Virus record (IMG/VR): IMGVR_UViG_3300027969_000043
Span: 64,001-128,000 of that record
From: a virus
DNA length: 64,000 bases
Direction: 5' to 3' (one strand)
Below are positions 1 to 44,128 of this stretch, piece after piece; position 1 is the stretch's first letter; each line of letters opens with the position of its first letter. The notes under the pieces were generated by a model. That model did not search any database and had not been told where the DNA came from. It saw only the letters and a list, made by a program, of their open reading frames with translations. The position numbers and the translations under genes are program-made.

Positions 1-2174
1 ACACCAGTATAATATGTTGTAGAACCTGTTGTTATACCTGTAAAAAACCCAGGGTCGGTTAAACCTGTTTGAGCAACAATTTGCGAATACGAAACGCCCC
101 TATATCCTGTACTAGTTGCGCTTAATATTTCCCCTAATGACGATGCGGTTCCAGCACTTGATGTGCTCAAACTAGGTAATGCAAACAAACTAGCATTATA
201 AAAATTACTAAGTAAAGAATCGTTTATTGTTATTGATAGAACAGTACCACCAGTAGTAGCAGCTGAATAATACATCAAATAACTTGATAATGTTGTATAA
301 TTTTGGGTGCTTGTAATTAATGTTGTATTAGCACTAAATGTTGGAATATTAAAACTATTAGCCACTATCTCACTACGTGTTGCTGGTGTAGCAGTACTAT
401 TTGCCTCAGTATATACAGCGCTTTTAATATTAAGAGCGGAACCAGCTGTACCCCAAAAACTCCTTATTGGGTTTGGCGGTCCAACAGTACTAGTTTCATT
501 TATAACCACCTGCCCACCAAAAGCGGCAACTGGTGCGGAAAATGTAAGAACACCGTTACTATTTAAAAACTTAGAATTTGGTCTATCAAGATGCGACATT
601 ACCAAATCGTTGTTATATGGTTTATTTCTAAATACAAACATTTTGGAAGGGTCTGGATATTGATTACTAAGACCACCACCACCTGCATTATATGACGTTT
701 CAAAATATAGTCCTAATGGGGCAGCTGGAGAGTAAATAACAGCCCTAGAAGTACCAAAATTTATCGCTGGGAATGAAGAAGGTAAAAATAAAGTACCCGT
801 ACCCGAAGCACCTTGTGAATATGTAAAATCAGCGTTAGTTGTAATTTGATTAGAACTAAAAAATGGTATCCTACCAGTTGTAGCAGAAAATGCACGTAAT
901 ACACCATTTGTATCAACACTCGTAAGATACGTATCAGCTGATATACCCGCTAATCCTTGAAATCTAACTGGGTTTGTTGTTGCGGTTACATGTAGTGTAT
1001 TGGTTCCCGATAAAACACCAATACCAACAGTTCCACCAGTACTAACCGTTAAAGCATTTGGTATTGTCGAAGAACTAAAGTTTAATGTTTTTTGATTTAA
1101 ATCAACAACCCTATTACCGTTTAAAGCACCGTCACTAGTATATAAGGTATTAATGCTTGAAGCGACTGTTGAAGTAAGTGAAGCAACAGAAATTGAATGT
1201 ACCACACCAACATTGTCAATTGTTAAAACATTTGAATCAGAAGAACCTCCTATACCCTCAATTCTAATTGGGTCAGTAGCTGCCGAAATATGTAATTTTG
1301 TACTAGCCGATAAAACACCAATACCAACTGTACCACCAGTACTAATTGTTAAACTGTTTGGCGCTGTTGATGAACTAAAATTTAATGTTTTTTGGTTTAA
1401 GTCAACACGCCTATCTGATTTTATTGAATCATCTTTACCATACAGTGTTGTTATACCTGTAATACTTAAATTTTTACTTGGGTCAGTAAAATCTAGCGCA
1501 ATTGAAGCACCTGTTTGATTATATGTTGCAGCTGTTGTATATATGTTTGTATAACCTGCAGTAAATCCAGTAACAATAAATACACCACGAGAACTAATTG
1601 GCCTCCAATTAGCTGTATCCCCACTAGGTGGTGTTGGGTTTGCACTAACATTTGCGATTGAGTAGTAATCTAAATTATTAACAGTATATGTAACAACAGT
1701 ACTAGCTGTGTATGCAGAAGATGCGTTCCAGTTACCAGCATAAAATAAACCAGTACGGGTATTTGTTGTGCTTGATGAAAACGTAACAATACCGTTTAAA
1801 GAATTATAAGTACCACCTGTAACGGTCACGTCTGAAGCCAACGAGCTAAGATTTTTTGTTATCCCACCACCAAATGTGTTTAATGTCAAATCATAACTCC
1901 CAAGGTCCCAAGTTAATCCTGTAACCATTTGTATTTGACTCCATGTTGTGTTACCACTATTTAATACGTAATAATCATTAAATGCGCCATTTTTAACACC
2001 AACAATCATTCCCGCTCTTCTTCTTTCAGAAGGTATTTCATTCCTAGCAGTAATATCATTAACATTTCTTAAACTATCAACACCATAAACTGGGTCAATA
2101 ACCGCATAAGTATCTTGGGTATCTGTTGGTGATATAAATCCAGTTATGCGTACTCCGCCATCTATAGTTGCCAT
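1..2174 (-). CDS. Tail fibre/virion structural protein, >720 aa, runs off the window start (not in ORF track)
   Basis: Manual translation from ATG at 2174 (MATIDGGVRITGFISPTDTQDTYAVIDP...) is open to position 1. S/T/G-rich, with an internal ~100-aa duplication and modules shared with the 1996-aa fibre. Confidence 0.75.
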   Translation of the reverse strand, partial: MATIDGGVRITGFISPTDTQDTYAVIDPVYGVDSLRNVNDITARNEIPSERRRAGMIVGVKNGAFNDYYVLNSGNTTWSQIQMVTGLTWDLGSYDLTLNTFGGGITKNLSSLASDVTVTGGTYNSLNGIVTFSSSTTNTRTGLFYAGNWNASSAYTASTVVTYTVNNLDYYSIANVSANPTPPSGDTANWRPISSRGVFIVTGFTAGYTNIYTTAATYNQTGASIALDFTDPSKNLSITGITTLYGKDDSIKSDRRVDLNQKTLNFSSSTAPNSLTISTGGTVGIGVLSASTKLHISAATDPIRIEGIGGSSDSNVLTIDNVGVVHSISVASLTSTVASSINTLYTSDGALNGNRVVDLNQKTLNFSSSTIPNALTVSTGGTVGIGVLSGTNTLHVTATTNPVRFQGLAGISADTYLTSVDTNGVLRAFSATTGRIPFFSSNQITTNADFTYSQGASGTGTLFLPSSFPAINFGTSRAVIYSPAAPLGLYFETSYNAGGGGLSNQYPDPSKMFVFRNKPYNNDLVMSHLDRPNSKFLNSNGVLTFSAPVAAFGGQVVINETSTVGPPNPIRSFWGTAGSALNIKSAVYTEANSTATPATRSEIVANSFNIPTFSANTTLITSTQNYTTLSSYLMYYSAATTGGTVLSITINDSLLSNFYNASLFALPSLSTSSAGTASSLGEILSATSTGYRGVSYSQIVAQTGLTDPGFFTGITTGSTTYYTG
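960..1410 (-). repeat. Intragenic direct duplication, 300-nt period (VDLNQKTLNFSSST..N.LT.STGGTVGIGVLS....LH..A.T.P.R..G)
   Basis: ataccaacagttccaccagtactaaccgtt at 1021 vs ataccaactgtaccaccagtactaattgtt at 1321; tttaatgttttttgatttaa at 1081 vs tttaatgttttttggtttaa at 1381. Confidence 0.85.
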
Positions 2175-2200
2175 ATATTTCTTTTTTTATTTTTTATTTT

Positions 2201-3460
2201 TTAAGAGCACAACCACGCATTTAATGAACCTGCAAAAGCGTTTGTCGTTCTGTATACATTATATGTTGTTGATATACCATATATATTACCAAATGATAAT
2301 GTTCCAACTACAGAGTACGGTATATTACCTATACCACTACAACCAGCTGTAGAATCTTTTAAATTAGTTGGTTGTGATAAACTTTGTGGTATAACTAAAT
2401 AACCATATTCAGGGCTTGCTGTTGACGGCCAAGTAATATAATTATTTGTAACATTAGCAACCAAAGCAGTATTAGTAAGACCACTTGCTTGTGCTGCAGT
2501 TATGCTAGTATTAGGTGACTTGCCATAATACCACCTATTTCTCCAAAAAGCTGTTATATTTCTTGTAAATGTTGTACCTTGACTATTAGTTGCTGTGATT
2601 TTATACAAATCAAGTGCTGTAACAGTAGCCGTTGAACTTGAAATATTAATTGATAATGTTACAGGTTGCGTTCCGTCATTTGCCGAACCACTAACCAATG
2701 TTGTTGTACTTGGTGATAACTGCTCTATAGTTATCGTGTTCGCACTTACATTTGTTGAATTTGATGTGGCCCAAGTAAATGTTTGAGAACCAATTGAAAT
2801 TGGTTGCCCAACTTCATAAACTGTTGTTAAGTTAGTTCTAGCGAATGATGTAAATGCTGGTACTTGATATGGGTATAATAACGCATCAAACATCTGTTGC
2901 ATTGTTTGGTTTAAAAATGTAGTCGATTGCGGTATCCCACCCAACCCTGCTGTTGTGGGTGTAGAATTTGTGTAAGTGGGTGTACTACCAGTAGAAAAAC
3001 CATTTATTATGATTGATGAACCATCACTATTATTTAAAGTTAGTGTACCTAATGTACTATCAGCCGAACCACCCGTTATGAACCCATCAACATTAATAGA
3101 TGAACCATTGGTATTATCCAACGTTAAAATACCTGTAACACTAGAATATGTTGCAGCTGTAACAGAACCAGCACCATCAGCTCCAGCAGCACCAGCAGGA
3201 CCAGCAGCACCAGCAGGACCTGTAGCACCAGCTTCACCTTCGGGACCCGCAGGACCTCTAAAATCATCTAAGTTAATAGACAATGTATCACCATTAAGTC
3301 TATTTAATTGTAGTGTTGTTCCGTTTAAATTGACGTTATCTATATCTAAACCTTTTAGAAATATAAAATTATTGTCAAGTTCGGCTTGACTTAAGACACT
3401 ACCCTTTGTTTCGTCACCGTATGGACTTGTTTGAGTCCTTAATATTAAATTATTTGACAT
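2201..3460 (-). CDS. Collagen-like fibre/structural protein
   Basis: N-terminal fibre-anchor-like KGSVLSQAELDNNF and a Gly-X-Y run GPAGPEGEAGATGPAGAAGPAGAAGADGAG. C-terminal half resembles that of 13482-15248 (FDALLYPYQVP vs FDDILFPVANP; WYYGKS vs YFWGKS). Confidence 0.7.
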   Translation of the reverse strand: MSNNLILRTQTSPYGDETKGSVLSQAELDNNFIFLKGLDIDNVNLNGTTLQLNRLNGDTLSINLDDFRGPAGPEGEAGATGPAGAAGPAGAAGADGAGSVTAATYSSVTGILTLDNTNGSSINVDGFITGGSADSTLGTLTLNNSDGSSIIINGFSTGSTPTYTNSTPTTAGLGGIPQSTTFLNQTMQQMFDALLYPYQVPAFTSFARTNLTTVYEVGQPISIGSQTFTWATSNSTNVSANTITIEQLSPSTTTLVSGSANDGTQPVTLSINISSSTATVTALDLYKITATNSQGTTFTRNITAFWRNRWYYGKSPNTSITAAQASGLTNTALVANVTNNYITWPSTASPEYGYLVIPQSLSQPTNLKDSTAGCSGIGNIPYSVVGTLSFGNIYGISTTYNVYRTTNAFAGSLNAWLCS

Positions 3461-3490
3461 ATTTGTTGATTAGATACTATATTAATAAAA

Positions 3491-3548
3491 AATACCCAAA
3501 TATAAATATTCACCAAAATTGTTTTGACAAATAAAATATTTGGGTATT
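3491..3548 (-). terminator. 13-bp inverted repeat (32-nt loop) followed by a T-run on the - strand; probable terminator of the 1279-aa gene
   Basis: aatacccaaatat (3491-3503) / atatttgggtatt (3536-3548). Confidence 0.5.
3502..3509 (-). promoter_or_regulatory. Putative late promoter ATATTTAT
   Basis: Recurrent sense-strand motif upstream of structural genes (12 sites in the window). Confidence 0.55.
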
Positions 3549-3567
3549 CTTATAATAAACTAAAACA

Positions 3568-6500
3568 CTATTGTTTTACAAATAATATTGATTGATTATA
3601 TGTAATAGCAACATAACTACCTGAAGTTAAGTTTCTCACACTAACCCAATCACCACCAGACGAATAACTAGAAGTTTTAACTGTAACCCCTAATATATTT
3701 TTAATCACCATAGTTCCAGACGTGTTAGAATTTATATATATTGACCTTCTATCTGAATTATAAAAAAACCTTCTAATATTAACTGAAGAACAAGACCTAC
3801 TTAAACTATCCGTTGACGGAAGACCAATGCAACCTATAGGTTCACTAGTATATGTTCTAGATTGTAAACCATTAATACATGTACTCCATTGACTATAAGT
3901 AAATACACATGGTGTTGGAGAAACACATGCTCTTTGAACACTATCCGCAGGAGGAACCCCTGTACAACCTACTGGTGTGGATGTATATGTTCTTGTTTGA
4001 GTTCCATTAGCACATGTTGTCCAAATTCCATATGTAAAATTACAAGGTACTATTGGTGATGTACAACTTCTTTGAATACTATCAGTTGGCGGAAATCCCA
4101 CACATCCAGTTGGAGATGTTACATATGGTCTTGTTTGAACCCCATTATTACACGTTGTCCAAGTTCCGTATGTAAAAATACAAGGTGTTGGAGCAACTGA
4201 ATTATACTGATATATTCCTATTGAAGGTGTTGCACCAACAATATTTCCTTCAAAATCTCTATTAAGACCTACATTTGTACCATTATTTATGGCATAAGAC
4301 GTATCACTAGCAATGTGCATATCCCAATTTTGTGGGTATATGCTAGAACTATCAACAATTAATTTACCATTGATAATTCTTTCGCCTATCGCTAATGTGG
4401 TATTAGGCCCTAAAGACGTAGGTGTAAATGAACCAACCGCTCCCTGATAACCACTAACTAAGTGATAGATATTATTTCTATAAAACGCTTTAGGTCTTTC
4501 AGATTGTGTGTATTTAGCATAAAACCCATTATTAATCCAAAATACATTATTACGAATATCAAATACAGTATCTGCTGCTTGAACACTATGGTCACCTGAC
4601 GCTATCGGCCTCCAAGCGTTTTGGAAGTTTTCTGATGATGGATAACGAGTTGATTTATTAATAGGGTATGGTGGCCAATAAATGAATCCTGTGTTTGCAT
4701 ATGTTTGACCATCACCCATAGCATCACCACCAGCATTGTTACCACTAAAACGTGACATAGAACCTTCTACAAAAAAGTTATTCCAAAAATGTAAATTTTT
4801 AACCTGTGTTGCATATGTTCCTGTAGTATTAACATACGCAATGTTGCTACAATTGATAAATTTATTATAGCAAATTGTATCGTCATCTGGGCCTTGTATA
4901 CCGCCTGGTAAATTTGTGCCAAACTCCATACCACCGCTACAATCAATGAATGTATTATAGGCAATGAATGAACTATCAAAATTATTAATAGTTTCAACAG
5001 CTCCACCTAATAAACCTGAACTAGATGAATTAAAAGGATTGGCATAAGCCCACGAACCTGTAATTCTATTATTTGTTATTCTATATTTACTTCCCGATAA
5101 TAACATTGGGTCAGCACCTATATCAGCTTGACTTGCAGTATCTGTTATCCAACCTGTAGATTTAAAATTACTAAATGTATTATTTTCAATCTTAAAATCT
5201 CTAACAAAGGCAACAATACCATATGCTGTATTACTAAAGTTACAGTTTTTTACCGTGATGTTACTACATTTACAACCATCACTTCCACTACAGTATCCAC
5301 TATCCCCAAACCAAAGTCCTAGCGTTGTAAAAGCACCCGAACGTTTGTCATTGACAGGGAATCTTGTATCATTAAACTGTATACCGTCTATCACAATGTA
5401 ACTTACATTAGCAAACGCCAATACACCTTTTTCGTTTGACCTAACTGAACTTGGATAAGGATATAGTAAGTTTGGGCTTTCTAAATTAATATCACCATAA
5501 TATGTGAATACAATTGGATTAGTAGCAGTACCTGAAGGGAAGCTTAATCCTTCATATCCACCACCATACCATTTTACAGAAGCTACTGTGCTGAACTCGG
5601 TACCATTAGCAAATATTTCACCTCTTTTAAAAGCAAATGTATCACCAGCAGTTGCAATACTACTTAAAGTATTTAATTTTGCTAGTGTTTTCCAAGGGGT
5701 CAATGGATTCTGTGCTTGTGTAACACTATACGAATCATTACCAATTGAACTAAAATAAAATTTTCTACCTCTTGTTGTTGGGGATGCACATGTTCTTGTT
5801 AAACTGTCTGCTGGAGGAACTCCCGTACAATTAGTTGGGGAACTCGTAAACGGTCTTGTTTGTATTCCATTACTACATGTTGTCCAAGTTCCGTATGTGA
5901 AAGTGCACGGTACTATCGGTGTTGTACAACTTCTTTGAATACTATCAGTTGGTGGAACCCCAATACAACCTGTCGGTGTAGGTGTATATGGTCTTGTTTG
6001 TGTTCCGTTAGAACATGTTGTCCAACTACCATATGTAAAAGTACATGGTGTTGGAGTAACCGAACCACCGTATTGGTATATACCCATCGAAGGTATAGCA
6101 CCAACACTATTACCAACAAAATCGCTTGTAAGACCTACATTAACTCCAGAATTTATGGCTGGTGATGTACTTGTTAATGTATAATCCCAATTTAAAGGGT
6201 TAGAGTTTGTTGTATTTGTCCAAATAATTCCAGATGTGGAAATCTCAGTACCGTCTAATGTGAAATTAGTAACACTACCATTAGATAATTTATATATGTT
6301 GTTAGTGTGACTTAAGTTAGCACCATTTAACTGTCCATTTCTTGTTAATGATAAACCATTAGATACCTGAATTATATTATTTTTAAGGATTATAATCCCA
6401 GCTGTAGCCTCTGATGTTGACATAGAAAACATAATACCGCTACTACCCCCTGGATTTGTATTAGGAACGGTTTGTAACATTACATTATTATAAAATTGTA

Positions 6501-7407
6501 AGTTTCTTACCGCAGTTTTATACTGTCCACTATTACTAATATAAACTACTGTGTTGTTATTAATAATCTTGTTGTAATATATTTTATTATTTTGAATTAA
6601 ATTATTAGCAACACCATCATTATTGCTACCAAATTCAAAAATACCATTACAGTCATAAAATGTATTGTAAGCAATCACGTTATTTTCAATAACAGAACCC
6701 TCTTCAAAAAATTCTACACCACCACCATCAAATGTATAATCATAACTAGCGGCATAACAATCGTGAAAGTAGTTGTTAGTAACAATATTATTTGAACTAG
6801 ATAGTTGAACAGGCACCCCACCATAATCGTCATCTGGATTAACAGATGTTGGTGTGTTTCTAATCATCCTTAAATTTCCAATATCACAAGAATCCACGGT
6901 GTTATTATTATTGCCTGGTGGAAAATACACGCCATAACCAGTTCTGTCCATCGTACACTTCCTAATAACTATTCCTGTACATCCTTGATACGTAGCAAAT
7001 ACATTTTGTATCTTAGCTTGAATATATCTATCAGTAGCTGATATTGTTGTATCGCTAATCTTCCAACCATAGAAAGTTAGGTTTGTACAACCATTCAATG
7101 TAATTAAAACACTTACTGTAGAGTTTGTCCCCCAGAATAATGGGTCGGCTCCTGTTCCATACACACCAAAATAAATGTTAGATTTATTTGATAATGTTAA
7201 TGTTCCCGAGAATTTAGAATCTTTTGCAAACAATACAGAATCACCATTAGCAACATTGCTTTGTACTTTAGATAATGTTTGCCAAGGCGTTAATGGATTT
7301 TGCGCTTGTGTTGTTGTGTAACTATCACTACCCGCTGAACTAACGTAAAATTTTCTAGCGCTAGCAAATAATGGAATAAATAAAAGAATTGTTAAAAACT
7401 TTTTCAT
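3568..7407 (-). CDS. Secreted tandem right-handed beta-helix (pectate-lyase-like) protein with 5 TSP1-like repeats and a T9SS-type C-terminal sorting domain
   Basis: Sec signal MKKFLTILLFIPLFASA. Two homologous domains each begin RKFY.SS.G.DSY...QAQNPLTPW.TL.K and end G..P.[MI]GIYQY. CxFTYxxWxTCxNGxQxR repeats. C-terminus IYIN...MVIKNILGVTVK...VSVRNLTSGSYV...FVKQ. Confidence 0.8.
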   Translation of the reverse strand: MKKFLTILLFIPLFASARKFYVSSAGSDSYTTTQAQNPLTPWQTLSKVQSNVANGDSVLFAKDSKFSGTLTLSNKSNIYFGVYGTGADPLFWGTNSTVSVLITLNGCTNLTFYGWKISDTTISATDRYIQAKIQNVFATYQGCTGIVIRKCTMDRTGYGVYFPPGNNNNTVDSCDIGNLRMIRNTPTSVNPDDDYGGVPVQLSSSNNIVTNNYFHDCYAASYDYTFDGGGVEFFEEGSVIENNVIAYNTFYDCNGIFEFGSNNDGVANNLIQNNKIYYNKIINNNTVVYISNSGQYKTAVRNLQFYNNVMLQTVPNTNPGGSSGIMFSMSTSEATAGIIILKNNIIQVSNGLSLTRNGQLNGANLSHTNNIYKLSNGSVTNFTLDGTEISTSGIIWTNTTNSNPLNWDYTLTSTSPAINSGVNVGLTSDFVGNSVGAIPSMGIYQYGGSVTPTPCTFTYGSWTTCSNGTQTRPYTPTPTGCIGVPPTDSIQRSCTTPIVPCTFTYGTWTTCSNGIQTRPFTSSPTNCTGVPPADSLTRTCASPTTRGRKFYFSSIGNDSYSVTQAQNPLTPWKTLAKLNTLSSIATAGDTFAFKRGEIFANGTEFSTVASVKWYGGGYEGLSFPSGTATNPIVFTYYGDINLESPNLLYPYPSSVRSNEKGVLAFANVSYIVIDGIQFNDTRFPVNDKRSGAFTTLGLWFGDSGYCSGSDGCKCSNITVKNCNFSNTAYGIVAFVRDFKIENNTFSNFKSTGWITDTASQADIGADPMLLSGSKYRITNNRITGSWAYANPFNSSSSGLLGGAVETINNFDSSFIAYNTFIDCSGGMEFGTNLPGGIQGPDDDTICYNKFINCSNIAYVNTTGTYATQVKNLHFWNNFFVEGSMSRFSGNNAGGDAMGDGQTYANTGFIYWPPYPINKSTRYPSSENFQNAWRPIASGDHSVQAADTVFDIRNNVFWINNGFYAKYTQSERPKAFYRNNIYHLVSGYQGAVGSFTPTSLGPNTTLAIGERIINGKLIVDSSSIYPQNWDMHIASDTSYAINNGTNVGLNRDFEGNIVGATPSIGIYQYNSVAPTPCIFTYGTWTTCNNGVQTRPYVTSPTGCVGFPPTDSIQRSCTSPIVPCNFTYGIWTTCANGTQTRTYTSTPVGCTGVPPADSVQRACVSPTPCVFTYSQWSTCINGLQSRTYTSEPIGCIGLPSTDSLSRSCSSVNIRRFFYNSDRRSIYINSNTSGTMVIKNILGVTVKTSSYSSGGDWVSVRNLTSGSYVAITYNQSILFVKQ
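3790..4182 (-). repeat. Three tandem TSP1-like 4-Cys repeats (~45 aa)
   Basis: CIFTYGTWTTCNNGVQTR...C...RSC; CNFTYGIWTTCANGTQTR...; CVFTYSQWSTCINGLQSR... Confidence 0.85.
5788..6045 (-). repeat. Two tandem TSP1-like 4-Cys repeats between the beta-helix domains
   Basis: CTFTYGSWTTCSNGTQTR...RSC and CTFTYGTWTTCSNGIQTR...RTC. Confidence 0.85.
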
Positions 7408-7485
7408 TTTAAATTTTTTTTAAAAAATTGTTATATTATAAGTACAATAATATAATAATTAATATATTAATTATATATTAATTAT

Positions 7486-10400: not shown

Positions 10401-13400
10401 TAATTCCAGCAGAATTACCAATAAAATTTGAATATGTTACACCAGTTGCATTTTGACCAGCATCTGAACCAATAAAATTAGAGTCATCTGAGTTAATTGC
10501 TTGATACCCAGCACCACCACCAATAAAGTTTGAATTACTAGAACTAGACGCATAAATACCAGCATTTTGACCGATAAAATTTGAACCAGTAACACCAGTT
10601 AGTTCAGAACCAGCATAATTGCCAATAAAATTTGAGCTTTGAACATTACTTGCCAAATTACCAGCTCCGATTACAGCAAAAAATGAATTAGTTATACCAC
10701 TCGAAGAAGCACCAGCTTCGGTACCAATAAAACTAGATTGATATATATCAAATGTGTTAGTACCAGCGTTATCACCAAAAAAATCTGCCAATTGGGAATC
10801 AATATTATTTGCCCCAGCATTTTTACCAATAAAGTTCGAGCGAGTAGTGCCCGTACTATTACTACCAGCACCTTGCCCAACAACAAACATATCGTTACCC
10901 AAAGCCTCAGCACCAGAACCGATGGCTATTGAATCGCTAGCTGAAACAACTGGTGGTGTTGTTGGATTTGTTGATGGTTCAGCGTAGTATTTTAAAGAAA
11001 CCGTTGACGCACTGCCTGTTAATCCAGAAACTGGATAAGCATGTAGAACACCATCAGTATCAATACTAACAACAAATGTATCAGCTGTTGTTGCTGTTAA
11101 TCCTTGAAATCTAACAGGGTTTGTTGCTGCTGATATGTGTAATGTGTTGGTTGCAGCTGTTGTACCAAAACCAGTGTTTCCTGATGCATCAACATATAAT
11201 CTAATTGTACCAGCACCGTTAGCGATAACGATGCTATTGGTTAAACCACTTGTAAGTTGTGGTATGTTATTACCAATAACAAGGTTATTGCTTCCTGTTA
11301 TAATACCCTTACCAGCATAATTACCAATATAAATATTATTATCACCACTTGTTTGTCCAGAGCCAGCTAGTAAACCAATTAAAATAGTATTGTTTAAATT
11401 AGCAATACCTGTATAACCACTATTTAATACCCCCGTAGCCCACCCAATACTAGTATTACCTGAACCCGTTTGATTATGATACAATGCTCCTTGACCAACA
11501 CCCGTGTTATTAATACCTGTTGTATTATTATATAACGCGGCGTAACCAATACCTGTATTATAGTTACCTGTTGTGTTAAATCTAAGAGCAACGCTACCAG
11601 TACTAGTATTTCCAGTACCAATAGTACTAGTAGCTAATGACGCATAACCAATTGCTGTGTTTGAGTTACCTGTAGTGTTTACAAGTAGAGCACTAGACCC
11701 AACAGCTGTATTAAAACTACTACCAGTTGTGTCTCTTAATGTACCATTACCAACACCTGTATTACTACCACCAACAGCAAGTTTACTCAACGAACCGTAA
11801 CCAATCGCAAAATTTAAATTACCTGTTGTATTTGCAGCTAAAGCACCAGAGCCAATTGCTAAATTTCTAATTCCCGTAGTATTTAATGATAAACTACCCG
11901 CACCAATAGCAGTATTTTCATAACCAGTAGTATTGTTAGTTAACGCACTAGTACCAATTGCGTTATTAGTATATCCAATTGTATTTTTTGCTAAAGCTTG
12001 ATAACCGATTGCAGTATTGCTATAACCACTTGTAACCCCTGATAATGAACCAGCACCAATACCCACATTACCACCAAAATTAACACCAGAATCAATTGTT
12101 GTAAAATTACCAGCACTATTACCTAAAAATAAGTTATTGGTACCATATGAATGAATAAATCTATTTGAATTCTGATTAATAACACCAGAACTTGATGATG
12201 TGGTACTAGGTATACCAACAGTTGTTGCCGATAAATCACCGTTTACCGTAAACCCACTAACTGTATTAAAGTTTGTTGTAAATGTTCGACCACTAGAATC
12301 ATTTATTGTAAATGTATTTGCTGAAGATATATATCCAAAACTAGTAATAACCGTATCAGTATATCCACTTGTAAATCCTGAAACATCAAACACACCACGA
12401 CCACTCAATGCCAACCAATTAAGTGTATCACCTGTTGGTGGTGTAGCACTAGGCCCAGCATTAGCAGATATTACAAAATAATCTTTATTATTACCACTAT
12501 ATGTAACAACCGTATCTGCTGTATATGCAGACACCGCCCTCCAATTACCAGCATAATACAAACCAGTACGGCTATTGCTAACATTTGAATAAAACGTAAC
12601 AACACCACTGTTTTTATTATAGGTACCACCAGTTACAGTCATATCTGTAGCCAATATACTTAGGCTTACTGTTAATGGTGAGTTATTGTTTTGATTAATG
12701 GTTAAATCATAATCACCCTGACTAAATGTAAAACCAGTCACATAAACATCTTGTGGTAACCCATTATATTGTGTTGCCGATATCGTTGTTGCTGAAAAAG
12801 TATTTGCTGTTAAACCACTAGTAAATATTGTCGCACCACCAACAGAACCACCAGTAAAAGTATCTACTGGTAAATTAAGATATGTTGTTGCTGATATTGT
12901 ATTAGCAGATAATCCACCAGTGAATAAAGTAGCCCCATTAACGGTACCACCAGTAAAGTTACCAACTGGCAGATTAAGGTATGTTGTTGCCGATATTGTA
13001 TTACCACTAAGTCCGTTGGTGAATAAAGTAGCCCCGTTAACGGTACCACCAGTAAAATTACCAACTGGTAAGTTAAGATATGTTGTGGCGCTAATTGTAT
13101 TTGCGGTTAAACCACTAGTAAATATTGTCGCACCACCAACTGAACCACCAGTAAAGTTACCAACTGGTAGGTTAAGATATGTTGTTGCTGATATTGTATT
13201 ACCACTAAGTCCGTTGGTAAATAAAGTAGCTCCGCTAACAGTACCACCATCAAAAGGGTCAATGGTTTTTAATACTAAATCATTATCTGCAATACCATTA
13301 TTATACCAGTATTCAATCACACCAGAACCAGAAAAAATACCAACGGTCAACCCCTTTGTTCTTTGTAATGATAGTATATTAGTATTAGCGTCTGTAACAC

Positions 13401-13476
13401 CACTCCATGGACCGTAACGGTTGTCCAATACTTTTGGTGAGTTACTATTTATATTGTCACTAAGATTTATTCCCAT
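7486..13476 (-). CDS. Giant tail fibre/adhesin (1996 aa) with YadA-head/Hep_Hag-like 14-aa repeats
   Basis: Long arrays of N.AIG..AL..NTTG and SNFIG..AG.... repeats, 33-aa N-terminal repeats, and a common phage-fibre C-terminal domain ending ...ATLIKKSGDVWYLSGDISV. Confidence 0.8.
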   Translation of the reverse strand: MGINLSDNINSNSPKVLDNRYGPWSGVTDANTNILSLQRTKGLTVGIFSGSGVIEYWYNNGIADNDLVLKTIDPFDGGTVSGATLFTNGLSGNTISATTYLNLPVGNFTGGSVGGATIFTSGLTANTISATTYLNLPVGNFTGGTVNGATLFTNGLSGNTISATTYLNLPVGNFTGGTVNGATLFTGGLSANTISATTYLNLPVDTFTGGSVGGATIFTSGLTANTFSATTISATQYNGLPQDVYVTGFTFSQGDYDLTINQNNNSPLTVSLSILATDMTVTGGTYNKNSGVVTFYSNVSNSRTGLYYAGNWRAVSAYTADTVVTYSGNNKDYFVISANAGPSATPPTGDTLNWLALSGRGVFDVSGFTSGYTDTVITSFGYISSANTFTINDSSGRTFTTNFNTVSGFTVNGDLSATTVGIPSTTSSSSGVINQNSNRFIHSYGTNNLFLGNSAGNFTTIDSGVNFGGNVGIGAGSLSGVTSGYSNTAIGYQALAKNTIGYTNNAIGTSALTNNTTGYENTAIGAGSLSLNTTGIRNLAIGSGALAANTTGNLNFAIGYGSLSKLAVGGSNTGVGNGTLRDTTGSSFNTAVGSSALLVNTTGNSNTAIGYASLATSTIGTGNTSTGSVALRFNTTGNYNTGIGYAALYNNTTGINNTGVGQGALYHNQTGSGNTSIGWATGVLNSGYTGIANLNNTILIGLLAGSGQTSGDNNIYIGNYAGKGIITGSNNLVIGNNIPQLTSGLTNSIVIANGAGTIRLYVDASGNTGFGTTAATNTLHISAATNPVRFQGLTATTADTFVVSIDTDGVLHAYPVSGLTGSASTVSLKYYAEPSTNPTTPPVVSASDSIAIGSGAEALGNDMFVVGQGAGSNSTGTTRSNFIGKNAGANNIDSQLADFFGDNAGTNTFDIYQSSFIGTEAGASSSGITNSFFAVIGAGNLASNVQSSNFIGNYAGSELTGVTGSNFIGQNAGIYASSSSNSNFIGGGAGYQAINSDDSNFIGSDAGQNATGVTYSNFIGNSAGISANDSIYSNFIGSNVGDGASATSRSNFIGYNAGRLTTGVTSSNFIGDTAGYGINNTDGFGNILKINAIGYNAASNGSDLASSNFIGSNAGSSASGITNSNFIGKDAGKEATDITNSNLFGSDAGGGASESSYSNFMGYGAGNGARNIGGSSFIGSAAGDGARNTSASNFIGTSAGESSTGITFSNFIGYNAGLGVLFSDVTVNSDLNFIGNQAGYQASAITGTTLIGASAGQLSSNIQYGNIIGYEAGSGTTNTKFFNFIGYQAGSGATGNDYSDYIGYRAGLNNYLSYGSVLVGTDAGSRSTGLTYGVVIGFNGLLSAATANNAANVIAIGTNAATNPYFPATGSTNAGTIANSTFIGNLAGAFVSGNSQNTVVIGTEAARASSRLSSSVVIGTSAYKTNKGQATSAVIIGNQAGFQSRQYTADTASTFANTVVIGFQAGKDLSGTSTNSVFIGNSAGLNTNGASASVYIGSNAGINGVTLSSSVGIGLSAGARNYTPSSSIYIGNAAGADSSISGFVTSNVIFIGSSAGNGATTALNSVFVGNNAGLDASGSSTSIIVGQSAGISSTGVTTSIIMGSESGRSIVGGPSDLVAIGYRAGYFMTGGSQSILLGYQTGWRGNLGSNNIIVGTNIGLSGTPSNRINIGGVIFGSNTYATTTGNPSTGATATGMIGIGVETPTARLTLPAATATQASLRLITGSTAPTSPNDGDIWIQNNDLRIRLSGVTKIVQVDPFTASSSTFSGGTVNGATIFTSGLTANTLNVTGNARLAGLTANTLTVTGNTIVSGLTATTISATTYFNLPTYISATTLSGNVLSVTSGGSTALTYTINAVTGGTYNSATGTITLSGTGSVNGNTITGITSASSNVSFGAIIGTAYTLQLSAANNNTIIEMTSSTANVVSIPPSATTNFSTGVQIGIVQNGTGQTSISGGTGVTILSSGGALKLRSQYSFATLIKKSGDVWYLSGDISV
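12780..13254 (-). repeat. Five tandem 99-nt (33-aa) repeats FTGG.V.GAT.FT.GL..NTISATTYLNLPVGN
   Basis: Directly visible in the translation; the fifth copy is partial. Confidence 0.9.
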
Positions 13477-13481
13477 ATTAT

Positions 13482-15248
13482 TTAATTATTTCTAAATTCT
13501 AATGTTTGTTGCACAGTAGGATAAACACTCCAATGCATTTTATAGTTAATTCCAGACCAATAAGATTCTGGACTTTTAACGGGTTGTAAAACGGCTGTTG
13601 TAATAAAACTATTATCAATATTACCAAAATTAAAACCAGTCTCCCACCATAATGTTTTTGTTGTATATCCAGAATAATAAGCAACCCAAATAAATTCACC
13701 AGTATTTAGTGTATTATATGGTATTGATATCGTACCAGATGCTGATGATAAAACTTTATTTGCTGTACCAGCAGATATAGTATCCGCAATATCCTGAGCC
13801 GTTGGCAATGTATTTGATTTACCCCAGAAATATGGGTATATACCTGTTATAGTAAATGTTGTTGAAGAAAAATTACTACTAGCTGCTTGTGGTGCGTTAA
13901 CAGAACGCACAGCTGGTGTTCTTGTATCAACAACTCCTTTGTTATTATTTTTAGAAGACCCAGAGGCATAATTACCGTCACCGTTATAAATTGTTGTTGA
14001 TGAATTACCCACCACAGGTGCTGGTATAACATACGATTCGGAATACGACGGTGTCATTGTGTACCTAAAATTAGGGTTATTAGGATTCGGATAGGTAAAT
14101 TGATTTGGAACAGCTGTTGTTGAAGATACCGCAAACGTCGTATCGGTAAATAATGAAGAACCATCCCTTAATACCCTTAGCTGTGAAAAAGCACCTGCGT
14201 CATTTTTAACACCAAACACACTAATAGTTGGTGAATATGTTACACCAATCTCTAATGTTTGTGTTGATGGACCAGTCATTGTTATTGTTGGTATTGTGTA
14301 TGTTGGATTAGCAACAGGAAATAAAATATCATCAAACAACTGAACCAATGTTCTACCTGTTAATAATGAAACAGTTGTTCCAGCTGATAACCCACCAATA
14401 CCCCTATCCATTGCTAACCCTCCATCTAAAGCAGTATTATAAAGAGAATATAACGAATTACCGTTCCTACCTAAACCAGTATTTGCTGATACCGTAATCC
14501 CAACGTTTGAAAGATTTGAACCATCACCATAATATGTTGATGCACTAACAGTCGTAGCTGATATGGTACCCATATTAGCAGTTGTTGCTGAAATCAGTCC
14601 AGAACTAATAGATACAGCATTTAACGTATTAAATGTTGCAGCACTATTAACGGTTAAATTACCACTAATAGTTAAACCTGTCATACTATTTACCCTCTGC
14701 GTAAATGTTGCACCGCTAGAATCAAAAATACTAAATGTATTATTTTGATATGTAAAACCAGTAACACGTATATCCGTATACCCACTTGCAAATCCAACAA
14801 CAGGAAATGTACCACCACTATTATTAATAAACGTAACAACACCGTTATTTTTGTCATAAGTACCACCAGTTACCCTCATATCTGTAGCTAGTATCGATAA
14901 AGATTCCGTTGTTGACCAAGTGTCGTTTCTACTTATGGTTAAGTTATAGTTAGCAACATCAAAAGTTAAACCAGTCACATAAACATCGTCAGATGGTTTA
15001 AAAAATCCAGTCACGTCAAACGTTCCACCACTAATATTAGTAAAAGTGATAATACCTGTAGTATCATTATAAGTACCGCCAGTTATTACAGCTTCAACAT
15101 TCAATCCATCGGTTATAAAATTAGCTAAAGTACTTAATGCAACTTTTTTTGTTTGGTTACCATTAACAATAGGCATTACATCATTATTGGTTAATGATGT
15201 GGCAAATGTTAATTGACTAATTTTTTTATTTTCGTTTTGTGCTGGCAT
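13482..15248 (-). CDS. Virion structural/fibre protein
   Basis: N-terminal KKISQL...DVMPIV..QTKKV fibre-type motif, VTGGTY/VTGFTY modules shared with neighbours, C-terminal domain paralogous to 2201-3460. Confidence 0.65.
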   Translation of the reverse strand: MPAQNENKKISQLTFATSLTNNDVMPIVNGNQTKKVALSTLANFITDGLNVEAVITGGTYNDTTGIITFTNISGGTFDVTGFFKPSDDVYVTGLTFDVANYNLTISRNDTWSTTESLSILATDMRVTGGTYDKNNGVVTFINNSGGTFPVVGFASGYTDIRVTGFTYQNNTFSIFDSSGATFTQRVNSMTGLTISGNLTVNSAATFNTLNAVSISSGLISATTANMGTISATTVSASTYYGDGSNLSNVGITVSANTGLGRNGNSLYSLYNTALDGGLAMDRGIGGLSAGTTVSLLTGRTLVQLFDDILFPVANPTYTIPTITMTGPSTQTLEIGVTYSPTISVFGVKNDAGAFSQLRVLRDGSSLFTDTTFAVSSTTAVPNQFTYPNPNNPNFRYTMTPSYSESYVIPAPVVGNSSTTIYNGDGNYASGSSKNNNKGVVDTRTPAVRSVNAPQAASSNFSSTTFTITGIYPYFWGKSNTLPTAQDIADTISAGTANKVLSSASGTISIPYNTLNTGEFIWVAYYSGYTTKTLWWETGFNFGNIDNSFITTAVLQPVKSPESYWSGINYKMHWSVYPTVQQTLEFRNN

Positions 15249-15258
15249 CTTTTTTAAT

Positions 15259-17070
15259 TTATTCTTGTTCTATTGCAAAAGAATCTTCCTGTAAAATCCA
15301 ATAATAATTCTCCAAAAGAATTAGGTTTGCGTTTGATGGATAATACCTAGATACTTCGCTTATATAAATATTCTGTATATCTGTAAAATATAAATCACAG
15401 ATATTAAATTTAAATTGAGATATACCCCCAATAAACGTTCCAGCAAAATTTTCTTGTATTGGTAAACCTAAATCATTTTGGTCTCTACCATCAAATGTTT
15501 GCGTTTCAATTAATCCCTGCGAACCGCCACCTAAACTAATGTTAAACGGAACACCAACTTGCTTTTCCATATGCTCTTCAAGCCTTCTTGCGATAAATTC
15601 ACTAAAATTATTTACAGTAAATTTAAGCCTACCATTAATATAAAACATCAACCTACCAGTTCTTGGTTTTTTATATTTAAAATCACAATCATCATAGTAT
15701 TCATCCATTGTATATCGAATAACAACATTTGTCCATGCGTCATTCTGAACCATTCCGCTTGAAGAATAACCCTCTTGTATTGTTATTCCACTAACATAAG
15801 TTGTTCCAGAACATTGACCAGTCACACTTAAAAGCCTGTATCCAATACTACCATCATCTTTAATTCTAAACCCTAATGCGTTATCTAGGATATCTAATTT
15901 GTAATCTAAATTATCAAATTCAATTGATTCACTAAAACCAGAAAAACTACAAACAGTTTGATTACCAAATCCACTAGGATTAGAATTACCGCATGAATGA
16001 CATCTTGTTGAACCACTACCAGCCCTACCATATATTAAAAACGGATTTTCTGTGTTAGTTATTACTGTTTTTGGTGTTGTAATAACTAATGGCCCACCAG
16101 AATAAGTACAAACAGTTTTGCTACCTAGACCGCTATGATTTACAGCACCGCACGAATGACATCTACTTGGACGCATTCCAGCTCTACCATAGATTAAAAA
16201 TGGATTTGTAATATATTCGGTATTTACACTATCTGGATATAAAGATATCAACTCACCACTCGCACCAGTAATAAAAATTTCTGGTTCTTTAGGTATTGTA
16301 CACCAATCACTTAGTGTATCGGTACAACCAGCTGGGACGGTACAACCACTGGTACAACCAGTATCAGCACCCTCAAACAAATTCCAAAATTTATTTTCAG
16401 CACGCGTACCCATATAAAAGAAAAATCCTTTATTGTTCGGGTATGTGTCATTTAATATTGTATCTGTATAACCAGAACACTGGTCTTCTTGTTTTTTTAA
16501 CCAAAATTGTGCGGCCCAAGCCTTATTTACTCTATTTGGTAAAACATCATATGTTGAACCATCTATCTTATAATATCCCTGATAAAAACCACCACACATT
16601 TGAGCATAATCGCCACTATCGTCATTTAATATATCTATTGGGTATATATAATCACCTGTTGTACCTGTGACCCTATTAAGATGCAATCTGCTATCACCAG
16701 ATGGGATAATCAGAGTTGTACCCGTTAATGCAGATAAAATAGCTTGATTTGTTGGGTCTGATGGATTTTTTTCAAAGGTTACCAATCCATTATCAATACC
16801 TGTAATACCTATCGTACTAAAAGTATATCCAGTATTTGTTGCACCAGTCCAATAATATAGACTTGAAATCGTATTTGCGGATGTTGAACCTGAAGAATAT
16901 ATTGCTGGTTCATTAAAATCAAACCAAACAACAGCACATTCACCAGTTATGGGAATATTGGGTATCAACGATTGATTATCATCGTCATTTGCTAGATAAA
17001 AATCCCAATAATCGCTATTAGATAATCTTAAATCCAGCTTTTTATACTTATAGTTTTTTATGTTTCCCAT
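15259..17070 (-). CDS. Virion structural protein, possible ConA/LamG-like beta-sandwich with duplicated Cys motif
   Basis: WTNVVIRY...LMFYINGRL...FIGGISQFKF resembles LamG strands; two NPFLIYGRAG....RCHSCG units. Confidence 0.5.
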   Translation of the reverse strand: MGNIKNYKYKKLDLRLSNSDYWDFYLANDDDNQSLIPNIPITGECAVVWFDFNEPAIYSSGSTSANTISSLYYWTGATNTGYTFSTIGITGIDNGLVTFEKNPSDPTNQAILSALTGTTLIIPSGDSRLHLNRVTGTTGDYIYPIDILNDDSGDYAQMCGGFYQGYYKIDGSTYDVLPNRVNKAWAAQFWLKKQEDQCSGYTDTILNDTYPNNKGFFFYMGTRAENKFWNLFEGADTGCTSGCTVPAGCTDTLSDWCTIPKEPEIFITGASGELISLYPDSVNTEYITNPFLIYGRAGMRPSRCHSCGAVNHSGLGSKTVCTYSGGPLVITTPKTVITNTENPFLIYGRAGSGSTRCHSCGNSNPSGFGNQTVCSFSGFSESIEFDNLDYKLDILDNALGFRIKDDGSIGYRLLSVTGQCSGTTYVSGITIQEGYSSSGMVQNDAWTNVVIRYTMDEYYDDCDFKYKKPRTGRLMFYINGRLKFTVNNFSEFIARRLEEHMEKQVGVPFNISLGGGSQGLIETQTFDGRDQNDLGLPIQENFAGTFIGGISQFKFNICDLYFTDIQNIYISEVSRYYPSNANLILLENYYWILQEDSFAIEQE

Positions 17071-17078
17071 TATAATAT

Positions 17079-17086
17079 ATAAATAT
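17079..17086 (-). promoter_or_regulatory. Putative late promoter ATATTTAT
   Basis: 8 nt upstream of the ATG at 17070. Confidence 0.55.
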
Positions 17087-17093
17087 CAATTTT

Positions 17094-18797
17094 TTATCTA
17101 GCCTTCAATTCTTTTATTTTTATTTCCAAGTCATTAATTTTAATTAATGCCTCTTGAAGAGATTTTACCGTTAATGCTAAAATACCATCATAATCTAAAC
17201 CATAAACACCATCCTTTTTTTCACCATCACCCAAAACCAACTCTGGCGTGGTTTCTAAAACGTCTTGTGCTATAAATCCATGTCTTTTAATACCAACATA
17301 TTTGTTAAATTCAAATTTTGCTGGTTTTAATTGTAAAATAATTGATGAGCTATCACCTGAAATGTATTCAATATTATTTTTTAATCTTTTGTCTGAGGTT
17401 CCACCACCTGGTGTACTTAATACGCCAGCATCCGTTAATGAAAAAATAAGACTTTTATACCCATCATCAATGATTTCTATGTCACCAGCAAGATTAAGTC
17501 TAAATGTTTTTGATGCCTTTGCCGCACCAAGTGCCGTGTTTGTAACACTTATAAAATCAACATAATCGGTACCACCAATTGTATTACTACCGCTGATATC
17601 AATAAATGCGTTTGCAGGACTACCATTAGTTATTACACTACCTTTACCTGATAATATAGTACTAGCAATACCACTAAAACCACCGCTAACAGTATTATTC
17701 ACATAAGCATCACCTTTTACGACCAATTTAGAGCCGTCCCATGTTAAATTAGCACTAGTTGCTGTTTTGCTAGGTGTAATTTGATAAAGTATTCTATTGT
17801 CCGTACCACTTTCACTTACTATGTTAGTTGCTAACGAAGCAGTTCCGTCTAAAGAACCTATCACTGTTGTGGCACTTATTGTATTTGCTGTTAAACCACC
17901 AGTAAATATTGTTCGACCACTTACAGTACCCCCACTTAATGGTAGATAAGCACCTGATGCAGATGAACTACCTGTATACGCAGACAGGCTTATTGTAAAC
18001 GCTGAATATCCATCAGCCCTATTTTGTCTTAACGTTATTGTATTTGAACTTAACGTAAACCCTGTTACAAAAGTATCTGCTGTTACAGGTAAATTAAGAT
18101 ATGTTGTTGCGGATATACTTGCAGCCGTTAAACCACTAACTATTCTTGTATCACCACTAACATCTAGTGTGAACTGAGGTGAAGTGGTTAATATACCCAA
18201 CCTACCACCACTAGTATTGGTAAACCTAGCTATTGCCGTAGTATGACCCCATATATCCACAAAATTTTGATTGCCACCACCAATCCTTAAAGTACTACTA
18301 TCAATCGATTTAAGAACAACCATTTGTGCATAGTCTGTTGGCCTTAAAAAAGATATGCCACCAGAATCAGAATTAATTGTTAATCCATCAGGTATATTAC
18401 CGCCACTATATGAACCAACGGTTGGCGTTGTTCCAATTAATACTCTACCACCAGAACTATTTGCTAATCTAGTTGTTCCAGAAGAAGTTAATTGACCACT
18501 AACAGTTAATCCACTCATACTGTTAATAGTTGCTGAGAATGTAACACCACTCTCAACTATTGAAAATGTATTATTTGTTGTCGTATAACTAAAAGAAGTT
18601 ATTGAACCACCACCTCCACTAGTACTTCCAGAACTAGATACATTACTCCAAAGATTACTACCATTTTTATTGATATATATTGTACCAGTACTTTTATCTG
18701 TAAACAAAGTTCCTATTGGCGCTAAATGCGTCGGTACACCAAGTCCACTTTGTATTGAACCTGAATTTAAACCATCCTCTCTTATTTCTATTGCCAT
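17094..18797 (-). CDS. Tail fibre/spike with C-terminal peptidase S74 intramolecular chaperone
   Basis: SDKRLKNNI...LKPAKF...HGFIAQDV...PELV...LDYDGILALTVKSLQE followed by a coiled coil. Confidence 0.85.
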   Translation of the reverse strand: MAIEIREDGLNSGSIQSGLGVPTHLAPIGTLFTDKSTGTIYINKNGSNLWSNVSSSGSTSGGGGSITSFSYTTTNNTFSIVESGVTFSATINSMSGLTVSGQLTSSGTTRLANSSGGRVLIGTTPTVGSYSGGNIPDGLTINSDSGGISFLRPTDYAQMVVLKSIDSSTLRIGGGNQNFVDIWGHTTAIARFTNTSGGRLGILTTSPQFTLDVSGDTRIVSGLTAASISATTYLNLPVTADTFVTGFTLSSNTITLRQNRADGYSAFTISLSAYTGSSSASGAYLPLSGGTVSGRTIFTGGLTANTISATTVIGSLDGTASLATNIVSESGTDNRILYQITPSKTATSANLTWDGSKLVVKGDAYVNNTVSGGFSGIASTILSGKGSVITNGSPANAFIDISGSNTIGGTDYVDFISVTNTALGAAKASKTFRLNLAGDIEIIDDGYKSLIFSLTDAGVLSTPGGGTSDKRLKNNIEYISGDSSSIILQLKPAKFEFNKYVGIKRHGFIAQDVLETTPELVLGDGEKKDGVYGLDYDGILALTVKSLQEALIKINDLEIKIKELKAR

Positions 18798-18803
18798 TAT
18801 ATA

Positions 18804-20003
18804 TTAAAATGATTCTAAATTTATTCTTTTCCAGCCATTTTCTGTTTTTAAATACAGATAATTCTCATCTCTTGTAAGGTTACCTAAATCACCCGATAAA
18901 TCTTGTGATGATATTGGTGTAAATGCTGGGATGATTAAACCGTTTGGTTTTAAATTTGTATTTGTTGTCCAATCACCGTTTTCATCTGTTTCTAAAAATG
19001 CGTTTTGGTTATCAGCAATTGCATGTAAAACAATAATACCACCACCAATCGATGTTTGATGATTACCATTATAGTTTAATTCAATATTATTATCTTCAGC
19101 AACAACGGTTTGTGTGTTTAAACTCTCTCTATTTACATTTATTGTAACATCACCATTTACCAATTCTTTTATTGCTTCAACCAATAATGCTGTAACATCT
19201 TTATAATGAACGCTCATATATTTACCATCGTTATGCGTTAACTCTGGAACAACCTCATTTACCTCCTGCGCAATAAAACCTATTTTTGTTGCGTTTCCAC
19301 CGCTATTTCTATCTTTCCAATTAAATGTTACACCCCTAAGGTTTAACACTTTATTTAATGCATCATCAATATTGTTGATATTTTCTTTTAGACTAACATC
19401 TGATGCATTATTCACCAAGAAACCATTTGCATCAATACCAACGTCAATTGTGCCTGGGCCCGAACCTAGATTTGTTATTACCATTCTTTCAGTTCTAGTG
19501 ATGCCAGAGACATCAACCCAAATTGTCCTACCAGTATAATCTAGTGTACCAGCACTTAAATAAGTCAAAAGTGACGTTGTTACGGTACCTGTAAAAACAC
19601 CAGCTGACGGACTAACACAAATTTGTGGTGTGATATCAAAACTAACACCTGAATAGTTTAAGTAATATCTATTTCCATCGGTAGTCCCACTTGTATTACC
19701 CGTATATACTTGACCAGTATTTTGTGTTAAACCACTATTTGTACTTGTTATTGCTGATATACGCGAGTTAGCAATATTCATTTTTGTATCATACCAAGTA
19801 AAAACTGTAACGCCAGTATTACCTGAAAAAGTGCTAAGAACACCAGATACAGTTGAAGTAGCAGCCGTTGTTATTAAATCTGGGCCTGTAGTTAAAGAGC
19901 TAAAAGTAACACCAAATGCGGTTCCACCAGATAAAACACTAAATGTTTCTGGTTGTTGTTTTACCTGTCTTGTTGAAAAATCTAATTTTGTTCTAAATTC
20001 CAT
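18804..20003 (-). CDS. Tail fibre-associated protein with internal peptidase S74 domain
   Basis: SDVSLKENI...LRGVTFNWKD...IGFIAQEV..VVPEL...VHYKDVTALLVEAIKEL, then ~115 further residues. Confidence 0.8.
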   Translation of the reverse strand: MEFRTKLDFSTRQVKQQPETFSVLSGGTAFGVTFSSLTTGPDLITTAATSTVSGVLSTFSGNTGVTVFTWYDTKMNIANSRISAITSTNSGLTQNTGQVYTGNTSGTTDGNRYYLNYSGVSFDITPQICVSPSAGVFTGTVTTSLLTYLSAGTLDYTGRTIWVDVSGITRTERMVITNLGSGPGTIDVGIDANGFLVNNASDVSLKENINNIDDALNKVLNLRGVTFNWKDRNSGGNATKIGFIAQEVNEVVPELTHNDGKYMSVHYKDVTALLVEAIKELVNGDVTINVNRESLNTQTVVAEDNNIELNYNGNHQTSIGGGIIVLHAIADNQNAFLETDENGDWTTNTNLKPNGLIIPAFTPISSQDLSGDLGNLTRDENYLYLKTENGWKRINLESF

Positions 20004-30454: not shown

Positions 30455-30455
30455 A

Positions 30456-31349: not shown

Positions 31350-31355
31350 TTTTTT

Positions 31356-33485: not shown

Positions 33486-33512
33486 TTAAATAATAAATAT
33501 CAAATTGAAATT

Positions 33513-35709: not shown

Positions 35710-35711
35710 TT

Positions 35712-36302: not shown

Positions 36303-36308
36303 AAAAAT

Positions 36309-36893: not shown

Positions 36894-36906
36894 AAAATAA
36901 AATAAA

Positions 36907-37545: not shown

Positions 37546-37566
37546 TTAAAATTAACAATAAATAAA

Positions 37567-40552: not shown

Positions 40553-40573
40553 AACAAAACAAAACAAAAAAAA

Positions 40574-42629: not shown

Positions 42630-42638
42630 TAAAAATAC

Positions 42639-43487: not shown

Positions 43488-43488
43488 C

Positions 43489-43516: not shown

Positions 43517-43522
43517 TCTACC

Positions 43523-44125: not shown

Positions 44126-44128
44126 ACT

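Follow-up and report, generated by a model that had tools for sequence, protein, structure and literature searches.

The motif [ST][GA]xT (Ser or Thr, then Gly or Ala, any residue, and Thr) is strongly over-represented in the tail-fibre genes at the left end of a 64,000-nucleotide stretch of viral DNA, bases 64001-128000 of the 168,871-bp record IMGVR_UViG_3300027969_000043 (the stretch is hereafter the window; CheckV rates the record 48% complete). We consider that the motif may well be mainly the strand-turn-strand signature of beta-rich tail-fibre repeat modules that form a large family restricted to phages, a judgement in which we place about even confidence. Fixed motif positions, paralogy among the fibre genes and a predicted structure together suggest a structural element that has been copied many times as modules were duplicated and shuffled. 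A sequence-only reading of the same DNA had taken the motif for the recognition site of phage-encoded glycosyltransferases (GTs).

Compared with counts expected from 1000 residue shuffles of each protein, six of the eight minus-strand open reading frames (ORFs) at 1-20003 are enriched in the motif (Table 1), with z-scores of 6 to 17 for the individual ORFs and a pooled count of 159 versus 32.2 expected (z = 22). The 419-aa and 1279-aa ORFs are not enriched, and the 3 motifs of a 468-aa protein, versus 0.7 expected, are not significant taken alone. Thr stands at +3 after a fraction of 0.37-0.53 of the [ST][GA] dipeptides in the enriched ORFs and after 0 of 38 in the 1279-aa protein. These recounts reproduce the earlier hand counts exactly or nearly so (about 11, 15, 13 and 18 in four ORFs, and dozens in the 1996-aa ORF and the ORF at 1-2174), together with the 35-55% share of Thr at +3 and the zero for the 1279-aa protein (about 35 dipeptides). 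The sequence-only reading had also proposed a genome-wide shuffle comparison of virion with non-virion proteins; this confines the excess to a fibre block of about 52 kb (31.9-84 kb of the genome) that runs past the left edge of the window, where further rich ORFs of 979 aa (67 versus 9.7) and 373 aa (25 versus 4.6) are found. The 111 ORFs outside the block, pooled, are at chance, with 24 motifs versus 29.3 expected.

The motif is tightly position-specific, and its last residue must be Thr, not Ser. In the enriched ORFs, Ser at +3 is found at 0.95 times expectation, Thr at +2 at 1.45 times and Thr at +4 at 1.1 times, and [ST] that is not followed by Gly or Ala at +1 falls to 0.78 times. The excess reaches 19-fold for motifs with hydrophobic residues at both -1 and +4, and such flanks, together with the intolerance of Ser at +3, would be typical of a packing constraint. 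Motifs bunch at spacings of 3-5 residues. Neither N-x-S/T nor the Bacteroidota sequon D-[ST]-[AILVMT] is enriched in the same ORFs. Because the proteins are rich in Ser, Thr and Gly, and because patches of Ser, Thr, Gly and Ala inflate permuted patterns in the capsid protein, the excess might be suspected of being a side effect of their composition or low complexity, or of a word at the DNA level. We consider this very improbable: the pooled z-score comes from shuffles that preserve composition, and permuted patterns are not enriched in the fibres or in the family of the 603-aa protein. Codon usage at motif positions equals background, with both Ser codon families present, indicating that selection acts at the protein level and ruling out a DNA-level word as the cause.

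Most of the enriched proteins are related to one another. All-versus-all BLASTP connects the motif-rich ORFs at 25-47% identity, with E values down to 1e-128, and at least 15 fibre genes in the fibre block are paralogous mosaics of common modules. Two of those in the window carry Peptidase_S74 intramolecular chaperone domains, which are typical of tail fibres. For most members of the set, the earlier description as unrelated and differently folded proteins is therefore wrong. The modules include a 33-aa tandem unit, 'GGTVNGATLFTNGLSGNTISATTYLNLPV', encoded in the 1996-aa fibre by a 99-nt tandem repeat of 4.7 copies (DNA 12779-13249); beta-meander units of about 35 aa; and a unit with a 17/51-aa period, seen in the 1996-aa fibre as 'SNFIG..AG..TGxT' at about 9577-10899. 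Recurring motif contexts include 'VTGGTYN..G.VTF', 'SNFIG..AG...TG.T' and 'HISAATNPVRFQGL', and in an alignment of 36 module segments T-G-G-T-Y and G-G-T-F are nearly invariant. Under liberal settings, 333 of the 355 motifs of the block fall within a segment that has a homologue elsewhere in the fibres, and for 314 of them the partner also has a motif where the two align; composition-corrected searches with E < 1e-5 lower these numbers to 170 and 139. By these alignments, paralogous segments hold 48-94% of motif instances, depending on the settings.

Mapping the motif onto a predicted structure, another check suggested earlier, was carried out on the 588-aa ORF and placed the motif at fixed in-strand and turn positions. 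The AlphaFold2 (AF2) model has predicted local distance difference test (pLDDT) scores of 80-94 over residues 50-200 (window 14649-15101), and this region is modelled as four three-stranded beta-meander units of about 35 aa, with 'TGxT' within strand 1 of each unit and 'SGx|T' across the turn preceding strand 3. Of eight sites in the model, four are in-strand T-G-x-T, three are S-G-x turns ahead of a strand and one belongs to a longer loop. Foldseek searches with the module model returned local beta-propeller-blade-like matches only, with TM below 0.1. We infer that a tight turn or the start of a strand is capped by the Ser or Thr at position 0, that Gly or Ala at +1 permits the needed backbone geometry, and that the beta-branched Thr at +3 opens or extends the next strand beside an aromatic or aliphatic residue that faces the core. 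The tetrapeptide would then multiply as modules are duplicated and shuffled.

The modules match no Pfam family and no related solved structure, and the homologue search found them in no cultured phage. Residues 1-320 of the 588-aa ORF match 889 representative clusters, in which a single protein can contain as many as 14 repeats. For the motif-rich part of the 567-aa ORF, metagenomic homologues number at least 289, and the best 120 of these show a median 6.3-fold motif excess (4105 in total versus 661). Matches in 185,579 species genomes number six only, mostly on short contigs of metagenome-assembled genomes. Modules are found on a 61.8-kb contig binned as Methanobacterium (L087, PLXT01000007.1) and in a Chitinophagaceae chromosome (L086, OZ245715.1), occurrences that could reflect a prophage or a mis-binned phage contig. 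Several module-bearing fibres, namely those of relatives P0004, P0006 and P0007 and the 979-aa ORF of this genome, carry the precomputed Pfam label PF26696, which was not matched in the Pfam scan of the window ORFs.

The motif also persists in one phage that lacks GTs. A small phage, G053 (27.9 kb, CheckV 87% complete, non-T4-like), carries motif-rich modules with 33 versus 8.2, 16 versus 3.6 and 15 versus 5.1 motifs, and none of its ORFs encodes a GT. Relatives of its TerL lack the modules, from which we conclude that modules move horizontally. The sequence-only reading had named enrichment in relatives lacking GTs as an observation that would speak against glycosylation, and G053 provides it as a single case: its fibre matches itself only, four context look-ups led to fragments of large phages, and no further GT-less carriers were found. 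The repeats can be aligned across fibres, the motif keeps fixed positions within them, and it is retained without GTs (in G053 only), all of which fit a structural module. The structural reading is also supported by outgroup phages that have GT2 or BAHT genes and show no motif excess.

Several results weigh against module structure as a sufficient explanation. After conservative masking of paralogy, 170 motifs remain in the unmasked residues versus 49.4 expected (3.4-fold), and the 588-aa model itself presents the motif in two structural contexts, in-strand and turn. The 603-aa protein is predicted by its model to fold as a ConA/LamG-type lectin jelly-roll; phmmer at maximum sensitivity detects no similarity between this ORF and the modules, and remote homology of its family to them was rejected at an hhalign probability of 0.2%. 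That family is conserved and single-copy, with at least 1858 homologues, among which there is no cultured and no solved representative. Across 121 orthologues the mean is 15.6 motifs versus 1.5 expected (10-fold), and the total of 1882 compares with 69-899 for permuted patterns of the same composition. Ser and Thr are interchangeable at position 0, Gly at +1 is near-invariant and Thr at +3 is invariant in these orthologues. The family has 7 fixed and 20 variable-occupancy motif columns versus 0-6 for independent control patterns, and the majority of its sites are predicted to lie in low-confidence insertions of the model, not in regular sheet. The motif is not a general property of tail fibres, either: T4 gp34 (1 versus 4.0) and gp37 (7 versus 3.3) are at chance, gp10 and gp12 likewise, and Flavobacterium phage immuto (1.5-fold overall, its fibres without excess) and Microcystis phage Mel-JY01 (1.3-fold) agree, so that a lineage-specific cause is needed. 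On the same side stand a 24-kb cluster of soluble glycan-biosynthesis genes that adjoins the fibre block and the TibC/Aah-like (BAHT) family, which 11 of the 38 module-bearing relatives carry, frequently within their fibre blocks.

A lectin-fold virion protein unrelated to the modules has the same local element, so the motif is not one repeat but a lineage-wide building habit of outer tail proteins. The earlier argument that one repeat cannot explain the bias is partly borne out by the excess left after masking and by the 603-aa family, although most of the excess does come from shared modules. The 603-aa protein has 16 Cys and two copies of 'NPFLIYGRAG...C-x-x-C-G' inserted in the jelly-roll, and 'TGCTSGCT', both Cys included, is 100% conserved in the 121 orthologues; the Cys-bearing insert could be metal- or disulfide-stabilised. 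The notion that this family keeps the number of motifs while their sites move was dropped, as the counts are over-dispersed (variance 8.4 versus 5.2).

A phage-encoded cytoplasmic O-glycosylation system might also use the motif, or its [S/T]-[G/A] turn, as acceptor, which would be compatible with a structural role; we regard this as possible but somewhat unlikely. On the proteins of the fibres and outer baseplate, a soluble transferase of the cluster would begin a glycan for other GTs and methyltransferases to extend, giving glycan-coated fibres, much as TibC and Aah act on autotransporter beta-helices, where a structural turn doubles as acceptor. TibC heptosylates Ser in N-S-G-G-A-V and T-S-A-A-V turns (S-G-G and S-A-A; PMC4358343), which favours this possibility, as do the protein-level, lineage-specific excess in at least two unrelated folds, the residue left by masking and the many sites gained and lost in the 603-aa family. 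The position of the cluster beside the fibre block, with all of its ORFs soluble, points the same way, and so does the order fibre block, dUTPase, Glyco_tranf_2_5 GT, which recurs in one relative. Also in favour is the BAHT family, which is found in module-bearing relatives as described above and has no match above its cut-off in any of 14 control genomes. On this view, hydrophobic-[S/T]-[G/A]-x-T-hydrophobic might be a new O-glycosylation sequon on the folded strand-turn-strand units of fibres and outer baseplate, recognised in the cytoplasm by a soluble, non-BAHT transferase that the cluster encodes, a proposal we make only tentatively.

Tests of the link between cluster and motif gave mixed results. 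The 169-kb record, which includes the whole fibre block and the cluster, has no match to TIGR04414 or PF01075, and queries with phage BAHT sequences also found nothing, so that no BAHT or GT9 homologue is present in this record, itself 48% complete. GT2 genes occur in 25 of the 31 module-bearing records of at least 60 kb, and GT2 adjoins the fibres in several smaller module-bearing fragments, but these records are fragments with linked genes. Among the five outgroup phages nearest by capsid, none has the module and 3-4 have GT2, so that GT2 co-occurrence, which had been put forward as a check, is no better than baseline and uninformative as support. The GT-less G053 retains the motif, and Mel-JY01 has a BAHT domain with 60 motifs versus 45 and no excess. 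The remaining exposed virion proteins are not enriched, the exported 1279-aa protein shows no special avoidance, and motif counts in the 603-aa family are not constant. Nor is solubility proof of a protein acceptor, since GTs that act on lipid-linked sugars also lack transmembrane segments. We therefore treat the link between cluster and motif as circumstantial. Separately, true BAHT domains were observed inside long frames (852-1503 aa) of uncultured jumbo phages (G021:C1:101424-102491, G011 and G016) and in the cultured phage Mel-JY01 (PP395634.1, 7339-8421), and BAHT homologues of about 300-350 aa are located within fibre gene blocks.

The motif could instead be read by something other than a GT, such as another modifying enzyme, a fibre assembly or chaperone factor, or a host polysaccharide contacted by a flat Thr-rich surface. 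A lineage-specific excess in unrelated outer tail proteins, the 3-5-residue spacing of motifs and the two fibres with Peptidase_S74 chaperone domains would all suit such a reader. We consider it improbable, as no candidate reader was identified and the data favour it over neither the structural nor the glycosylation reading.

Two proteins with low or ambiguous motif counts bear on how far the pattern extends. The exported 1279-aa protein had been used as a negative control. In its orthologues the motif is found at 0.66 times expectation, within the 0.46-1.85-fold span of permuted patterns; the depletion is not exceptional, and sequon avoidance is not supported. Its bacterial homologues, in Ferruginibacter and other Bacteroidota, carry SprB repeats and a type IX secretion system (T9SS) C-terminal sorting domain (PF18962), and this sequence relationship suggests that the phage carries a T9SS-cargo-like protein and infects Bacteroidota. 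The gp23-type major capsid protein has an N-terminal extension or insertion of about 330 aa that is kept full-length in at least 80 relatives (55-82% identity). Its motif count, not significant alone, agrees with the four reported earlier, but only those at residues 139 and 234 fall in the extension, those at 344 and 352 lying in the gp23-aligned part and not, as claimed, in the insertion. Across 79 orthologues there are 56 motif columns versus 30-54 for permuted patterns, with no clear outlier, and local patches of Ser, Thr, Gly and Ala push all permuted patterns above shuffle expectation on the capsid alignment. An enrichment of the capsid insertion is thus not a clear signal.

The record encodes a T4-type portal and a prohead protease besides the gp23-type capsid protein, which identifies the window as part of a T4-like myovirus. 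Contigs that carry capsid relatives at 55-82% identity reach 345-363 kb, and the record is therefore a fragment of a jumbo phage. The closest cultured capsid is that of Flavobacterium phage immuto (42% identity), and the host of this T4-like jumbo phage is probably a member of Bacteroidota. Large aquatic phages of Bacteroidota with glycosyltransferases among their core genes have recently been described (PMC12619734). The thymidylate-synthase/hydroxymethylase family, a possible hint of DNA glycosylation, was not found in this record of half a genome.

The glycan cluster follows the fibre block on the opposite strand. Transmembrane-like segments are absent from all ORFs between 20 and 47 kb, and sugar-nucleotide, GT2 and FkbM genes were identified there, in agreement with the soluble sugar and GT cluster described earlier. 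Of the GTs listed individually in that description, 25966 and 45647 proved to be GT2-family members and 44516 a weak GT1 match, and 22515 has no family match. No heptose-specific enzyme passes its cut-off in the cluster; the host could supply an ADP-heptose donor. At 24394-27429 (plus strand), dUTPase/dCTP-deaminase-like and GMP-reductase/IMPDH-like genes lead into the first GT2 with overlapping stop and start codons. The following interval, 27426-37545 (plus strand), holds about fourteen co-oriented ORFs of 190-300 aa, some matching GT2 or FkbM and the remainder no family.

Table 1. Features of the window, with observed and shuffle-expected counts of [ST][GA]xT where determined.
Feature	Position	Strand	Basis	Observed	Expected
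Mosaic tail-fibre ORF of 1582 aa extending past the left edge of the window, its C-terminal 724 aa lying inside	3..2174	-	paralogous to 1996-aa ORF, E 1e-128	23	4.8
419-aa fibre-like protein with short collagen-like stretch	2201..3460	-		4	3.2
1279-aa beta-helix protein, T9SS-cargo-like family	3568..7407	-	shuffle counts, homologues	0	4.6
1996-aa mosaic fibre	7486..13476	-	shuffle counts, BLASTP paralogy, tandem repeat	79	16.9
588-aa fibre	13482..15248	-	homologue search, alignment, AF2 model	18	3.5
603-aa Cys-rich virion protein, predicted ConA/LamG-like lectin fold	15259..17070	-	homologue, profile and model comparison	13	1.2
567-aa fibre, C-terminal Peptidase_S74 intramolecular chaperone domain	17094..18797	-	Pfam	15	3.5
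399-aa fibre, Peptidase_S74 chaperone domain	18804..20003	-	Pfam	11	1.6
Soluble glycan-biosynthesis cluster	25966..46450	+	Pfam, NCBIfam		
Conserved 487-aa Glyco_tranf_2_5 protein (first of the six GT2-family genes)	25966-27429	+	Pfam/NCBIfam		
Six GT2-family genes	25966, 28205, 28921, 31356, 34942, 45647	+	Pfam/NCBIfam		
FkbM methyltransferases	35712, 40574	+	Pfam/NCBIfam		
SDR epimerase/reductase	37567	+	Pfam/NCBIfam		
Beta-PGM-like (beta-phosphoglucomutase-like)/nucleotidyltransferase fusion	39194	+	Pfam/NCBIfam		
WecB UDP-GlcNAc 2-epimerase	41625	+	Pfam/NCBIfam		
Weak GT1 match	44516	+	Pfam/NCBIfam		
gp23-type major capsid protein, ~330-aa N-terminal extension or insertion	56108..57958	-	family and orthologue searches	4	1.6

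If the motif is only structural, it marks a very large undescribed family of fibre modules, the extent of which is indicated by the 889 representative clusters, and it carries the caution that short sequon-like motifs in fibres can stem from module shuffling. If it does serve as an acceptor, phage tail-fibre glycosylation would gain its first defined sequon, and the strand-loop-strand logic known from autotransporter heptosylation would hold in viruses too. The virion glycan coats of abundant aquatic jumbo phages would then be directly testable, with a bearing on host recognition, on avoiding adsorption to cell debris and on particle stability. Were the new sequon real, the tail apparatus would bear a methylated-glycan coat in a large clade of aquatic jumbo phages of Bacteroidota.

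Among known systems, the BAHT enzymes TibC and Aah, which act on TibA and AIDA-I, are cytoplasmic and soluble and modify many Ser in [S]-[G/A]-[G/A] turns of strand-loop-strand beta-repeats (PMC4358343). Their acceptor Ser-Gly-Gly turns resemble the phage motif, and family members occur in relatives of this phage. In contrast, this record has no family member and no heptose pathway was seen in it, TibC targets Ser and not Thr, and the known acceptor lacks Thr at +3. In mycobacteriophages, glycans are described on C-terminal extensions of capsid and tail-tube subunits (Freeman et al. 2023, as cited in PMC12619734). As far as that citing account goes, the likeness lies in GT genes placed beside virion structural genes, an arrangement the window shares, and in a proposed cytoplasmic modification of the virion; the candidate sites here differ in being internal turns of fibre repeats, with no clear signal in the capsid, and the comparison on our side draws on genes alone. 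Chlorovirus capsid glycans and mimivirus fibrils are examples in which clusters of soluble GT, sugar-nucleotide and sugar-methyltransferase genes, with no export genes, decorate virion proteins. The window resembles these giant-virus glycan factories by gene content only, as those belong to eukaryotic viruses and use different enzymes and acceptors. Whereas the modules described here have no Pfam family, solved structure or cultured carrier, and T4 fibres lack the motif, the proteins of the fibre block can be likened to mosaic S74 fibres of the T4 gp34/gp37 and endosialidase type, with which they share long, beta-rich fibres, shuffled modules and, in two ORFs, the S74 domain itself.

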